In this document: piece after piece, positions 9,119 through 23,908 of the stretch
How positions within the stretch are numbered: position 1 is the stretch's first letter
Layout of the letters: each line of letters starts with the position of its first letter
DNA from: a virus
DNA length: 32,000 bases
Direction: 5' to 3' (one strand)
IMG/VR virus record: IMGVR_UViG_3300037510_000657
Span: 73,877 to 105,876 of that record
Program-made: the position numbers and the translations under genes
The notes under the pieces: model-generated
Database searches by the model: none
What the model was told of the DNA's origin: nothing
The model's input: the letters and a program-made list of their open reading frames with translations, nothing else

Positions 9119-9658
9119 TCACTCTTCGAGCTCCCCGTTCCAGTACTGGAAGTCGCGGCACCAGGTCTTCCAGGTCTCCGGGTCGCCCTTGCGGAAGACC
9201 AGGGTGAACCGGACATCGGGCAGCTTCTTGGGCCGCACCGGGACGGACAGGAGCTTCATCCGAGCCTGCTCGGGAGTCCTGCCGCCCTTCTTCTGGTTGC
9301 AGGGCACGCAGCAGATGACAACGTTCTCCCAGATGGTCGTGCCTCCCTGGGAGCGGGGCTTCACGTGATCGTACGTCGACTCGTGCCGGGGTACCTTGTT
9401 GCCGCAGTACTGGCAGGAGCCGTTGTCACGGGCGTAGACGTTCTCTCGAGAGAACTTGATGGCCTTCTTCTTGGACCGCATCGAGCGCAGGAAGCGCACG
9501 ACCGATGGCATCTTGCACGAGAAGGTGACCGCACGGATCTCCTTGTCCTCGTACTCCTCGACGACTTCGACCTTGCCCATGAAGAGCAAGGTCACGGCTC
9601 TTTGCCAGTGGATGCGCGCGACTGGCTCGTAGCCGGGGCTAAGAACAAGCGTGTCCAT
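9119..9658 (-). CDS. HNH endonuclease
   Basis: CQYCGNKVPRHESTYDHVKPRSQGGTTIWENVVICCVPCNQKKG is a canonical HNH/McrA-type motif. GGAGG precedes the ATG. Confidence 0.9.
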   Translation of the reverse strand: MDTLVLSPGYEPVARIHWQRAVTLLFMGKVEVVEEYEDKEIRAVTFSCKMPSVVRFLRSMRSKKKAIKFSRENVYARDNGSCQYCGNKVPRHESTYDHVKPRSQGGTTIWENVVICCVPCNQKKGGRTPEQARMKLLSVPVRPKKLPDVRFTLVFRKGDPETWKTWCRDFQYWNGELEE

Positions 9659-11115: not shown

Positions 11116-11467
11116 TGGTGGACCCGGGGGGAGTCGAACCCCCGTCCAGAAAAACATCAGCTCAGAGCGCTACGTGCGTGTCCGTGAACCTCACGGCGGG
11201 TACTGCTTGGTGTCCCTGTTTCACGTCTCGGGACCCGACGAGGGCTCCCTCACCGAAGTGAGCGGCGCCTCCACCATCCAGCTTTCTGTTCCTAGGAGTG
11301 CTGGACACCCGACCTACTCTAGGCCGCAGCCTGGAGCGGGAGCGCAACATCGTTGTCGTTGGCGACAGCGTTCGCGTTTGTTTGTGGTCTTCTTTTTACG
11401 AGGCCTGATGACCAACCTCGGCACGCTCTCCGAACCTCAGAATCCCTGTCGAAACCTTTACGGGCCC
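11116..11467 (-). ncRNA. ssrA: tmRNA (SsrA), tag ANAVANDNDVALPLQAAA
   Basis: 5' GGGCCCGTAAAGGTTTCGACAGGGA..., GCCGAGG...GGCCTCGTAAAAAG as in bacterial tmRNAs. Tag frame runs from GCG (11375) to TAG (11319-11321). 3' end GGGGG-TTCGACT-CCCCC-CGGGTCC-A-CCA, with G3-U70 in the acceptor. Confidence 0.9.
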
Positions 11468-11474
11468 GTAAGCT

Positions 11475-12141
11475 TTACCAGACGCCTCGGACGTAGTCCT
11501 TGTAGCGCCAAGTCTTGTTGGTGATGTGGTCGTTGACCACTCCGTCCTGCGTGCGGATGGTGCGGCGCTTGTCGCCACGCATCCCGCTTCCCACCTGAGC
11601 TCGCCGGTCGGCTGCTCGGGTACCATGTACGAGGGCTTGCTTGGCCTCCCAGATCTTCGCCCTGAGAAGAGCGATGGCCGACTCCCGGTTGTGGTGCTGC
11701 GACCTTTCTCCCTCGCACCGGACCGTAAGGCCTGTGGGGATGTGCCTCATCTGCACCGCGCTGGACGTCTTGTTGCGGGCCTGTCCACCAGCTCCCGAGC
11801 CCTTGGTGGCCTGCCACTCGATGTCCGCCTCTCGTAGCACCACCTCGGTCTGAGAGGGCTCAGGGAGGACGGCTACGGTCACGGTGCTGGTCTGAACCCT
11901 TCCCCGCTTGTCGTTCGGGGGAACGCGTTGCCAGCGGTGGCCGCCCATCTCGTCCTTGAACGTCTCCTTGGCTTCCTTGCCCTCGACGTGGAACACCATC
12001 AGTCCGGGTCTGTCATCAAGGAGGTCGAGGCTAAAGACCCCTCCGCTGACAGAGTCTCGAGTACACGCCGAACTGCTCATAGACGAGCAGCTTGGCATCG
12101 TCGCCGCCTTCGGCTGCGCGAATCTCTACGATGACGCCCAT
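11475..12141 (-). CDS. Truncated class-I peptide chain release factor (RF1-like, lacks domain 1) requiring +1 programmed frameshift at CUU UAG
   Basis: ATG 12141 (GGAGG upstream) gives MGVIVEIRAAEGGDDAKLLVYEQFGVYSRLCQRRGL, then TAG at 12031-12033. The +1 frame (track ORF 11475..12098) continues SLDLLDD...HRWQRVPPNDKRGRVQTSTVTVAVLPE...GSGAGGQARNKTSSAVQMRHIPTG. The frameshift site reads GGAGG-GGU-CUU-UAG-C. Confidence 0.8.
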
Positions 12142-12154
12142 GTGGTACCTCCGG

Positions 12155-12226
12155 TGGAATCGGCGGGAGTCGAACCCGCACTTGAGCGATGCGAACGCCC
12201 CGTGCTCCCGTTAGCACTACGACCCC
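12155..12226 (-). tRNA. tRNA-Ala (CGC)
   Basis: Acceptor GGGGTCG/CGATTCC with G3-U70, D arm GTGC-TAACGGGA-GCAC, anticodon arm GGGCG-TTCGCAT-CGCTC, T arm GCGGG-TTCGACT-CCCGC. Confidence 0.85.
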
Positions 12227-16273: not shown

Positions 16274-17029
16274 TTACGCGTAGCTCGAAGCAGTGTCAAC
16301 TTCTTTTTTCGTGACCACCGGGCAGACCTGATTTCTGCCATTCGACTTCGCTACATAGAGCTGCATGTCCGCTCTTGCGATGGTGGTCATGAAGTCCTCA
16401 CCGTTCACTGTCTCCGCGGCCCCGATGGACACGGTGACCGTCTTGCCGTGCGCGTAGTCTACGTCTGCAACGGCATGGCGTAGCTTCTCACCGACGATGA
16501 CCGCGCCCTCGAGGTCCGTGTCCGGAAGGATGATGAGGATCTCCTCACCACCCCAGCGAACAGCGTGGTCGGTGATGCGGACGGTCGACTTCACCGTTGC
16601 GCAGACGGTCTTCAGGATCTCGTCGCCCATGTTGTGCCCGTACTCGTCGTTGACCCTCTTGAAGTAGTCGACGTCGAGCAGCAGGTACGAGAGCGCAGTT
16701 CTCGTCCGTCTGGTGCGAGAGACACAACGACTGATGACCTGCTCTCCGCCTCTGCGGTTGAGCAGGCTCGTGAGCGGGTCGCTGATGGCGGCCGCTTCGT
16801 AGGTCGAGAGGAGAGCCTTGAGCTCGCTCGTCTCCTTGGTGCGCTCCTTGTGGTCCAGAGCGATCTTGTGCCGAGGCACGATGTCCGCTCCGTACGCACG
16901 ATAGAGGCATGCTGCGACGACGGCTACCGCCATCGCTTCGCTCAACAGCCCGACCTGTTTCGCTTCCGCGATCCCTGCCGCTACCCCTGCAACCTGCAGG
17001 AGGAGGGCAGCGAGTATCAACCTGAACAT
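16274..17029 (-). CDS. GGDEF-domain diguanylate cyclase with N-terminal membrane anchor
   Basis: LLLDVDYFKRVNDEYGHNMGDEILK, RITD (I-site RxxD) 5 aa before GGEEI, SIGAA, ARADMQLYVAKSNGRNQV. Two hydrophobic N-terminal helices. GGAGGG precedes the ATG. Confidence 0.9.
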   Translation of the reverse strand: MFRLILAALLLQVAGVAAGIAEAKQVGLLSEAMAVAVVAACLYRAYGADIVPRHKIALDHKERTKETSELKALLSTYEAAAISDPLTSLLNRRGGEQVISRCVSRTRRTRTALSYLLLDVDYFKRVNDEYGHNMGDEILKTVCATVKSTVRITDHAVRWGGEEILIILPDTDLEGAVIVGEKLRHAVADVDYAHGKTVTVSIGAAETVNGEDFMTTIARADMQLYVAKSNGRNQVCPVVTKKEVDTASSYA

Positions 17030-18587: not shown

Positions 18588-18662
18588 TCGCGCGTAGCTC
18601 ATGTGGAAGAGCGCCCAGCGTAATGAACTGGGAGGTAGCGGGTTCGACCCCCGTCGCGCGAT
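18588..18662 (+). tRNA. Lone plus-strand tRNA-like gene with 9-nt anticodon loop (CGTAATGAA)
   Basis: TCGCGCG-TA-GCTC-ATGTGGAA-GAGC-G-CCCAG-CGTAATGAA-CTGGG-AGGTA-GCGGG-TTCGACC-CCCGT-CGCGCGA-T. All stems pair. If C-A closes the loop, the anticodon would be AAT. Confidence 0.6.
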
Positions 18663-18694
18663 CTGGGAGGGTCTGTGAAAACTGAAGAGGTGCT

Positions 18695-22474: not shown

Positions 22475-23908
22475 CTAGTAGCGGTTGTCGGTCTTGAACT
22501 CGACCAGGTACTGCAGGATGTGCTGCTGGATGTCGTAGACGATGAACTCGTTGTGGAGGAGGTAGCTGCCCTTCTCCCCCTGCACCGAGTGGTAGCCCGC
22601 GGGCGGCTTCGTCAGGTGGCTCTGCGAGTCCTTGTACTTCTTGATGGTCCCGAGTGCCACGTCGGCCACGAACATGAAGAACGTGTCGCCGTGAGCCCCT
22701 CGCCCGCCGCCGAAGCGCCCGAAGGCGTACTGCTCGGACTTGGAGCTCTGGTCGGCGAAGTAGAGGCCGTTGCCGAACATCGAGCCAGTGATGTAGACAC
22801 CGGGCGGCCTCATGAGCAGGCCGCTCTTGCAGATGCCCAGGATGTTCTGCGGCCCGGAGCCGTGGAACAGGGCCTGGACGTTGCCGGTCTCCTTCATGGT
22901 CTTGATATGCTTCTGCGTCTGGCCGCGCACGTTCACGCGCCAGACGTTCTTCACCTGCATCTTCCAGGTGTGGTGGGAGGAGCGGGAGGACTGCATGTAC
23001 TTCTCGACCTTCTGATACGAAGGATTGGTGTTCTCGAGGTACTCGTACTCGCAGCCGATCTCCTTGTACTTCTTCCCGATGTCCGTCGTGGCGAAGCCAC
23101 CGACCATGCCTTGGACGTCGGAGAGCAGCTTGAGGAGATCCTCCTTCTCGTCGAGGATGGTCGCGTTGTTCAGCGCCATCTTGTGCAGCCAGGCATCCAT
23201 GGCCGCGTCTCCGTCGCTCTTCTTCGGTCGAAGCCCCATCTCCTGGGGGATGGCCGAGTAGAACTTGTTGGAGAGCTGGAGGATGTCCGGGTGGATGGAG
23301 TCCTTCAGCTTCGGCTTGGAGTCGAGCATGGCCTGCACCTCCTGGAGGATGTGCCTGCCGTCCTCGATCTGGGTCAGCGTCAGGGTGCCGAGTGGGTTCT
23401 CCACGGTGGAGTTCAGCGTTCCCGACAGCTGGCTCTTCACGGCCTGCCCCGCCTCCGCGTAGAGGCGCTCGACGAGCTTGGACACGCTGTGGTGCAGCTT
23501 GACGTCGTCCTTGACGTCCTTCGTGTCCGAGACGACCTTGTCCTTCTTGATGTCGTCGGAGAGGATCTGGGCGTTGCCGACAGACGAGCCGACCTTGGTC
23601 GAGGCCATCTTCACCTCGACGTAGCCCTTGCGGGCGCTGGTCTTCTCGGCCTTCAGGGACTCGAACGCCTCGAGCAGCGAGGGCTCGTTCTGCGGCGGGA
23701 TGCGCTCCTCCTGGACACCCGAGGCGCCGACGCGCCCGTAGCAGGAGAAGAGCCTGAACTTCGTTCCGTCCTTCGAGACGTGTGCCTCGATCTGGTAGAA
23801 CTTGTTGTTCCCGCCGGTGAGGTCGGTCTTGTTGAGCGTGGCCGACTTGACGACGTTGTAGTCGTTGGGGAACTTGAACGTTCCCAGTGCTTGGGCTCCG
23901 AGCTTCAT
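22475..23908 (-). CDS. Poly(ADP-ribose) polymerase homologue (WGR + helical regulatory + catalytic domain, H-Y-E triad)
   Basis: WGR: NKFYQIEAHV...FSCYGRVGASG. Regulatory: NPLGTLTLTQIEDGRHILQEV. Catalytic: LFHGSGPQN (H), GNGLYFADQSSKSEQY (Y), YLLHNEFIVYD (E). Confidence 0.9.
   Translation of the reverse strand: MKLGAQALGTFKFPNDYNVVKSATLNKTDLTGGNNKFYQIEAHVSKDGTKFRLFSCYGRVGASGVQEERIPPQNEPSLLEAFESLKAEKTSARKGYVEVKMASTKVGSSVGNAQILSDDIKKDKVVSDTKDVKDDVKLHHSVSKLVERLYAEAGQAVKSQLSGTLNSTVENPLGTLTLTQIEDGRHILQEVQAMLDSKPKLKDSIHPDILQLSNKFYSAIPQEMGLRPKKSDGDAAMDAWLHKMALNNATILDEKEDLLKLLSDVQGMVGGFATTDIGKKYKEIGCEYEYLENTNPSYQKVEKYMQSSRSSHHTWKMQVKNVWRVNVRGQTQKHIKTMKETGNVQALFHGSGPQNILGICKSGLLMRPPGVYITGSMFGNGLYFADQSSKSEQYAFGRFGGGRGAHGDTFFMFVADVALGTIKKYKDSQSHLTKPPAGYHSVQGEKGSYLLHNEFIVYDIQQHILQYLVEFKTDNRY

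Follow-up and report, generated by a model that had tools for sequence, protein, structure and literature searches.

A release-factor gene split by an in-frame UAG codon

The 32,000-nucleotide (nt) stretch of viral DNA analysed here, hereafter the window (positions 73,877 to 105,876 of IMG/VR record IMGVR_UViG_3300037510_000657), carries on its minus strand a phage release factor (RF) gene that is split between two reading frames by an in-frame UAG codon. Direct reading revealed that the frame-0 open reading frame (ORF), termed ORF0 (12034..12141), starts at ATG 12141 behind the initiation Shine-Dalgarno (SD) sequence GGAGG (12148..12152, 6-nt spacer) and runs for 36 codons to CUU, encoding the peptide MGVIVEIRAAEGGDDAKLLVYEQFGVYSRLCQRRGL; it is closed by UAG (12031..12033), which is followed by C 12030. 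The body of the gene lies in the +1 frame (11475..12032) and extends from AGC (Ser37) over 185 codons to TAA 11477-11475. Omitting U 12033 joins the two frames into a protein of 221 amino acids (aa).

The junction reads CAG CGG AGG GGU CUU UAG C. It comprises an internal SD-like GGAGG (12040..12044) whose 3' end is separated from CUU by 3 nt and from the stop by 6 nt, the spacer GGU (12037..12039), the slippery codon CUU (Leu36; 12034..12036) that would occupy the P site, and the UAG that would be the A-site codon at the shift. This cassette, GGAGGNNNCTTTRR, occurs once in the window, compared to 0.10 occurrences expected from shuffled sequences. Past the UAG, frame 0 continues as CCU CGA CCU CCU UGA, giving four residues and then a stop, with no RF sequence. 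An earlier note on this DNA, made from the letters alone, had described the start with its GGAGG, the 36 aa, the TAG and the 185-codon +1 frame with its GGQ and PPN motifs, and had remarked that stop suppression is not the way through in the window; direct reading agrees on each of these points. The note had also likened the junction to the frameshift site of bacterial prfB, of which all local features but the stop are indeed present. Compared to a prfB-type cassette, the window has the same ORF0 closed by a stop, the same CUU_U and the same SD-like element 6 nt before the stop; however, its stop is UAG, where such a cassette has UGA, rarely UAA, and never UAG, and the gene is not an RF2 gene with the site at codon ~26 in domain 1.

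The coding sequence is squeezed between two structured RNAs on the same strand. Upstream, tRNA-Ala(CGC) (12153..12226, predicted by ARAGORN) ends 11 nt before the RF start codon (12142-12152, including the SD), with the initiation GGAGG (12152-12148) directly following its 3' end. Downstream, the phage transfer-messenger RNA (tmRNA; 11116..11467, ARAGORN, with the tag ANAVANDNDVALPLQAAA) starts 7 nt beyond the TAA (11468-11474), one less than the 8 nt given by the earlier note. Should the maturation nucleases of tRNA and tmRNA process this array, hardly any untranslated sequence would be left at either end of the RF mRNA. Public calls for the exact window sequence (L164; JGI 3300045391) divide the gene into two products, an ORF of 36 aa and a "release factor" of 174 aa; the identical sequence has been recovered from two independent samples.

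The predicted product is an RF1-type factor lacking domain 1

The 36-aa peptide encoded by ORF0 alone matches residues 101-134 of the Pfam model PCRF (E-value 4e-5), in agreement with the earlier suggestion that it is the start of RF domain 2. The +1-frame body, which covers the remainder of RF domain 2 together with domains 3 (GGQ) and 4, matches the Pfam RF-1 domain with an E-value of 5e-26. The joined 221 residues give a contiguous match to PCRF 102-194 plus the RF-1 domain. Among the NCBIfam models, RF1 scored highest with 205 bits (model positions 106-319 of 347), followed by RF2 (134), PrfH (84) and ArfB (43); the model alignment of both halves proposed by the earlier note accordingly returned the joined product as one contiguous RF1 match. 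All of these scores lie under the full-length cutoffs (205 compared to 400 bits for RF1), because domain 1 is missing.

Comparison with the PDB revealed the same order of similarity, with RF1 of T. maritima and T. thermophilus as the best matches (E-values of 1e-41 to 3e-44), and RF2 (4e-25 to ~1e-24) and PrfH (3e-12) as weaker ones. In this alignment ORF0 encodes the RF helix α5 (EIRAAEGGDDAKLLV...RRGL), equivalent to residues 105-140 of T. thermophilus RF1, and the junction residues L36/S37 align with F140/E141, right after α5 in domain 2. An AlphaFold model built from 36 family sequences has a mean predicted local distance difference test score (pLDDT) of 82.7 and a predicted template modelling score of 0.74, with the junction-spanning blocks reaching a pLDDT of 92-94. 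Superposition by Foldseek placed the model on free RF1 and RF2 with a TMq of 0.80-0.83. The tRNA-Ala 11 nt upstream of the start codon leaves no room for further coding sequence, so that no domain 1 can be encoded. Judged by its sequence, the product derives from RF1 by loss of domain 1. RF1 stripped of domain 1 is reportedly functional both in vitro and in vivo (PMC1586002).

Two other identities were considered and rejected. The product is of RF-H-like size, as the earlier note had pointed out; in sequence, however, it is not RF-H (PrfH), scoring 83.8 against the 166.65-bit cutoff of TIGR03072 and 205 bits with the RF1 model, and the genomic context differs as well, since the upstream neighbours are tRNA genes with no RtcB-type gene among them. 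A rescue factor of the ArfB/ICT1 type was discarded because PCRF domain 2 and domain 4 are both present and the ArfB model covers residues 98-132 only.

Alignment with the PDB structures further revealed that, among the RF1 residues that read the stop codon, the equivalents of G116, Q181 and T194 are kept in the window product, whereas E119 is changed to Asp, H193 to Gln, and T186 of the PxT tripeptide to Asn. The tripeptide at the PxT position is PPN (residues 74-76; 11913..11921), with N76 corresponding to T186 of T. thermophilus RF1. The catalytic GGQ motif (residues 118-120; 11781..11789) is invariant in the family alignment. In three related RF genes (L001:~1600, L004:~4250 and L060:~4250) the PxT recognition loop is lost and replaced by QRTSNGRIHSS, WMRDRTGKVHTS or WQQKSGDRVHTS, compared to QRVPPTEKRGRVHTS in other members; members lacking the loop may not recognise stops in the manner of RF1. 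A close relative (71% identity) encodes a 286-aa ORF with a faint methyltransferase match (L165:5650-6510, plus strand) that overlaps the 3' end of its RF gene by 4 nt and could be a candidate partner that methylates the GGQ motif; no counterpart of this ORF adjoins the RF gene of the window.

The frame break is conserved among viral relatives

A scan of IMG/VR with the family alignment gave 243 confirmed loci, of which 80 were fetched on contigs of up to 618 kb. The main comparison set consists of the 64 fetched viral loci with a +1 break, 58 of them non-identical, with 39-71% guanine plus cytosine (GC); a further set at the protein level holds 160 non-identical +1 members. A megablast search of the region against deposited phages found no match, and a tblastn search of deposited phages recovered one family member, LR745208.1, besides ordinary RF1 and RF2 genes. 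LR745208.1 is a 485-kb uncultured phage whose RF gene, the best match among deposited phages (55% identity), has an ORF0 of 36-37 codons (...RRGL*) followed by the +1 frame, with the junction CGG AGG GGT CTT TGA C. No cultured phage with a family member was found. A scan of GTDB with one genome per bacterial or archaeal species gave two members, both on short contigs of metagenome-assembled genomes (L084 and L085); the remaining matches are bacterial prfA genes of at most 45% identity, and a bacterial origin for the window was dropped. The family is essentially viral. Many relatives of 170-240 aa with 56-76% identity are present in the protein database, with out-of-frame N-termini ending in "GGxF", which is GGA GGN NNC UUU read in the +1 frame; gene callers had thus taken the +1 ORF.

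The architecture of the site is deeply conserved. The break falls at the identical codon in all 64 loci, and the P-site codon is CTT in 58/58 non-identical loci. In 31/58, GGAGG is placed with its 3' end exactly 6 nt from the stop, and ~11 more have a related purine motif there, giving an SD-like element at fixed spacing in ~42/58. The base after the stop is C in 42, G in 13, A in 2 and T in 1, and hence C or G in 55/58. Over the 90 nt upstream of the stop, frame 0 has a mean pairwise identity of 59% and is stop-free in 58/58, whereas the +1 frame has 28% identity and contains stops in 29/58. Downstream of the stop, the +1 frame is the sole frame open in all 58. Frame conservation thus flips exactly at the stop in 58/58. 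The closest relative of the window with a visible junction (72% identical) has the same CGG AGG GGT CTT TAG C with differing flanking bases, and two homologues at 70-71% identity have TGA at the shift site.

Several homologues are uninterrupted (P0058, P0081, P0108, P0109 and P0117; L020, L024, L028, L033, L039-41 and L058) and align without gaps to the predicted joined product, as in P0117 (...ARRGL-DVELVEE...). Such versions occur in several clades.

The stop at the shift site is under its own selection

The shift-site stop is TGA in 46, TAG in 11 and TAA in 1 of the 58 non-identical loci, and UGA in 122 and UAG in 38 of the 160 protein-level members. UAG is therefore a minority variant and not a defining feature of the cassette. 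The earlier note had presented the site as built on UAG instead of UGA, which holds for the window and fails for the family; likewise, of the CUU UAG pair that it proposed to trace in related phages, CUU is universal and UAG is restricted to 11/58. A rough neighbor-joining tree placed +1/UGA as the inferred root state and UAG at roughly eight separate places, with the window clustering with L017 (UGA) and L030 (UAG). UAG would, on this tree, have arisen several times independently.

TAA occurs at 1/58 shift sites, compared to 34/58 as the true terminator of the same genes (Fisher p = 3e-12), and the shift-site stop is thus under a selection of its own. UAA is the sole stop read by both bacterial release factors, so that its avoidance fits a site that needs to compete with termination. 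Local stop usage or GC content as the source of stop identity was rejected, since TGA dominates even in phages of 39-45% GC whose genes mostly end in TAA. TAG-ending neighbours make up 33% at the TAG-site loci compared to 24%, with much of the excess coming from the window itself. Across the family, the third PxT position is N or T about equally and independently of the shift-site stop (N 50 and T 64 at TGA sites; N 19 and T 16 at TAG sites).

In-frame stops at the same codon and an expanded-loop tRNA

In four loci, which belong to at least two clades, an in-frame stop falls precisely at the shift codon, and the RF body continues in frame 0. These are L004 and L060 (CTC TGA, stops at L004:4109 and L060:4106), L021 (CTA TGA, stop at L021:4100) and L015 (TAT TAG, stop at L015:4103), and the slippery CTT is absent from all four, being CTC, CTA or TAT there. 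Their neighbour genes end in the same codon and have another stop soon after, and genome-wide reassignment of the stop appears unlikely on this pattern; in an ORF-coverage test for reassignment, control loci behaved like the in-frame-stop loci. It is possible that these members use readthrough. Further in-frame TGA codons lie 9-10 codons downstream of the usual site in L069 (4136) and L077 (4139), and a few codons past it in L002, L078 and L082 (30-40% GC). Should readthrough occur at these sites, what is conserved would be a stop at codon 37 that is reached by two recoding routes.

In two related loci, a tRNA with an 8-nt anticodon loop (C-U-UAAG-C-A) lies ~2 kb upstream of an RF gene with the CUU_U shift codon (L008:1510-1587 and L018:2442-2516, both on the plus strand). 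The orthologous tRNA at L005/L010:1983-2060 has a 7-nt loop with the anticodon AAG, which reads CUU. The expanded-loop tRNA resembles classical +1 frameshift-suppressor tRNAs; its function is uncertain because the anticodon stems are mismatched. The window is without such a tRNA.

Proposed mechanism and competing explanations

We propose that a ribosome initiating at ATG 12141 would translate the 36 codons of ORF0 until CUU (Leu36) occupies the P site and UAG the A site, while the internal GGAGG pairs with the anti-SD of 16S rRNA. The peptidyl-tRNA-Leu would then slip from CUU to UUU (12035-12033), AGC (Ser) would be read next, and 185 further codons would complete the 221-aa factor. Among the phage tRNAs predicted by ARAGORN are tRNA-Leu(GAG), which decodes CUU through wobble, and tRNA-Ser(GCU), which decodes AGC, the first codon in the +1 frame; in E. 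coli prfB, CUU is likewise read by wobble. The shift would compete with termination at a slowly decoded stop, and its yield should therefore report the release activity on that stop: the slower the action of release factors, the larger the fraction of ribosomes that would make the factor. In the window, the UAG gate would respond to RF1-type activity, that is, to host RF1 plus the phage factor if this is RF1-specific. Negative feedback by the product itself could follow, which would fit a phage that ends ~40% of its genes in TAG. We consider it likely that the gene undergoes a genuine programmed, stop-gated +1 shift that produces an RF1-type factor. Feedback through UAG termination in the window is plausible, and self-feedback as a step of its own is put forward tentatively, with the balance leaning slightly against it.

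Several observations weigh against this scheme or parts of it. The occurrence and efficiency of the frameshift, the codon specificity of the factor and the feedback are all inferred, and ~8/58 relatives have no SD-like motif at all. The change of the PxT Thr to Asn and of E119 to Asp means that recognition of UAG by the window product is not assured. After correcting for 402 tests, none of the residues, those of the reading head included, varies together with the stop type, a result which, along with the repeated appearance of UAG beside UGA sisters, suggests that stop identity is loosely constrained. Moreover, in ~80% of members the gate of an RF1-type factor is UGA, a stop outside the RF1 repertoire; self-feedback can thus hold as a family-wide rule only if the factor has broadened its specificity to UGA.

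These points bear on two explanations that accept the frameshift. In one, the shift is real and the feedback is not: the stop would act as a pause that fixes a low yield of a potentially toxic factor, and its identity would be nearly neutral, barring UAA. The frequent switches between UGA and UAG without compensating change in the factor, the avoidance of UAA at the shift site and the uninterrupted versions in several clades would all be expected, and overexpression of a release factor is toxic in B. subtilis (PMC12421855). However, a weak start site would be a simpler way to set the yield, and the stop has been kept over wide divergence, or swapped for an in-frame stop at the same codon, which argues that the stop itself is selected; we regard a fixed attenuator as unlikely. 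In the other, the gate would read host factors only, host RF2 in UGA members and host RF1 in UAG members such as the window, and so dose a phage factor that is inactive on the stop of its own shift site. The RF1-like reading head (Q181 and T194 kept, PPT in half of the family) in a family whose usual gate is UGA speaks for such a cross-sensor, as do the PPN and the E119-to-Asp change that make self-recognition of UAG uncertain in the window; the RF1-type product of UAG members would nevertheless be expected to read UAG, and we regard this explanation, too, as unlikely.

The explanations that do without a frameshift fare far worse. Two separate genes, with the 36 aa as a leader or unrelated ORF and the RF body started internally in the +1 frame (174- or 207-aa products), are what automatic annotation has made of the locus. 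Yet the 36 aa form the RF α5 helix with the residues that read the first base of the stop, and no other part of the gene is as well conserved in frame 0. Upstream of the stop, the +1 frame lacks conservation and contains stops in 29/58 relatives. The position of the internal start varies among relatives, and the uninterrupted homologues hold both parts in one frame; this leaves the two-gene reading highly improbable. Nothing but the presence of a frame break speaks for an indel from sequencing or assembly, or for a pseudogene in decay; the earlier note had named a sequencing indel or a pseudogene as a possible refutation. The same break with an invariant CTT_T in 64 independent assemblies of diverse GC content, selection on both frames and the identical sequence from two independent samples reduce the chance of either to next to nothing, and on the comparative data both are effectively excluded, as are two independent genes. 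Suppression or readthrough of the UAG, or removal of the extra base by transcriptional slippage, could draw on the relatives with an in-frame stop at this codon, some of which may use readthrough; in the window, however, frame 0 meets UGA four codons on without RF sequence, and none of its 36 tRNAs predicted by ARAGORN has a CUA anticodon. A run of three T, as found at the site, is too short for polymerase slippage, and we give this group of explanations a vanishingly small probability.

Returning to the programmed, stop-gated shift, a broader and rather doubtful extension can be formulated: large phages may have independently evolved a second recoding-gated RF gene, in which production of an RF1-type factor without domain 1 requires passing a stop at codon 37, mostly by a prfB-like +1 shift and in a few members apparently by reading through UGA or UAG placed in frame at that codon. 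The UGA gate of ~80% of members would then be either a sensor of host RF2 that doses an RF1-type factor, a cross-wired arrangement, or a sign of broadened, near-omnipotent stop specificity.

Genomic surroundings

The RF gene is embedded in a same-strand array of 35 tRNAs (ARAGORN), and in about half of the relatives it likewise lies within a tRNA array. Adjacency to the tmRNA was rejected as a family trait, being seen in the window and L022 only. The window has 62% GC, and a rough minus-strand gene set ends in ~13 TAG, 13 TGA and 4 TAA, which bears out the earlier remark that TAG is frequent; TAG is about as common as TGA as a gene terminator, an unusually high share for a phage of 62% GC.

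The window also encodes rIIA/rIIB, ThyX and dCTP deaminase. An HNH endonuclease gene (9119-9658, minus strand) lies within the tRNA array between the tRNA-Ser and tRNA-Leu blocks, and a protein with a GGDEF diguanylate cyclase domain (16274-17029, minus strand) adjoins the array. A 477-aa protein (22475-23908, minus strand) combines WGR, poly(ADP-ribose) polymerase (PARP) regulatory and PARP catalytic domains, a eukaryote-like PARP architecture in a phage. On the strand opposite to the main array, a tRNA-Ile with the unusual anticodon AAU (18588-18663, plus strand) recurs in related phages (L005/L010:1659-1735 and L066:7378-7452).

Comparison with known systems

The phage gene resembles bacterial prfB, the gene of RF2 with its autoregulatory +1 frameshift, in an SD-like element whose end lies 6 nt from the stop, in CUU, stop and C, in a short ORF0 followed by a main body in the +1 frame, in a class-I release factor as product, and in a minority of homologues without the site. 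The spacing of 6 nt between SD and stop is the rule given for prfB (PMC10732093). The phage gene differs from prfB in being RF1-type and phage-borne, in its stop (UAG in the window; UGA/UAG/UAA 46/11/1 in the family) and in the mismatch, in most members, between the sensor stop and the predicted specificity of the product. The phage site also lies in domain 2, at about RF1 residue 140, whereas that of prfB sits at codon ~26 in domain 1. With a different gene family and a non-homologous position, the site is best read as convergent and looks like an independent invention; the ancestral "...ERRGW/F..." of release factors at the junction point already supplies codons of the CGG AGG GG type. The SD-CUU-stop solution would then have been reachable more than once.

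In a 2025 survey of 12,753 genomes, TGA was the stop in 98.6% of 8,164 prfB motifs and TAG in none, and prfA gave no indication of a programmed frameshift (PMC12421855). A 2016 review of recoding states that no counterpart pairing UAG with an RF1 gene is known (PMC5009743), and prfB is the sole release-factor entry in the GeneTack survey. No published description of a phage RF1-type cassette was found in the literature searched, although one may still be published elsewhere. Programmed frameshifting in release-factor genes has been held to be a speciality of RF2, and the phage RF1-type cassette, which is widespread among large phages, runs counter to this view. Bacterial RF1 (prfA) is the best match to the product in sequence and structure, with GGQ and the equivalents of Q181, T194 and G116 kept and with PPT as the PxT tripeptide in about half of the members; however, the product lacks domain 1 (221 compared to ~355 aa), has PPN and Asp for E119 in the window, and is encoded by a gene with a predicted programmed frameshift, of which bacterial prfA has none (PMC12421855; PMC5009743).

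RF-H shares the size of ~200-220 aa, the absence of domain 1 and the GGQ motif. It differs from the phage product, which has an RF1-like reading head and whose gene has tRNA-Ala upstream instead of an RtcB-type gene, whereas RF-H genes are, as a rule, directly preceded by a co-oriented RtcB-family gene (PMC1586002). Recoded and huge phages likewise carry RF1 or RF2 genes amid tRNAs and tmRNA (Borges et al., 10.1101/2021.08.26.457843; Al-Shayeb et al., PMC7162821). These papers treat the release factors as code-switch modules or as part of a translation toolkit and do not mention a frameshift. In the window, genes terminate at all three stops, and no suppressor tRNA is encoded.

In public gene calls, the members of this family are at present split or cut short. 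The gated gene also has a bearing on the handling of translation termination by large phages during infection. The UGA, UAG, UAA, in-frame-stop and uninterrupted variants of the family constitute a natural experiment on what the gate senses. A viral parallel in outline is the eRF1 of a giant amoeba virus, described in the 2016 review (Atkins et al., PMC5009743) as a viral termination factor that needs recoding for its own synthesis. That factor is of eukaryotic type, is encoded by a nucleocytoplasmic large DNA virus and, according to the same review, needs readthrough as well as frameshifting; protein, signals and host machinery are unrelated to those of the phage factor, and the two systems are alike in that the synthesis of a termination factor passes, or in the phage would pass, through a recoding event.

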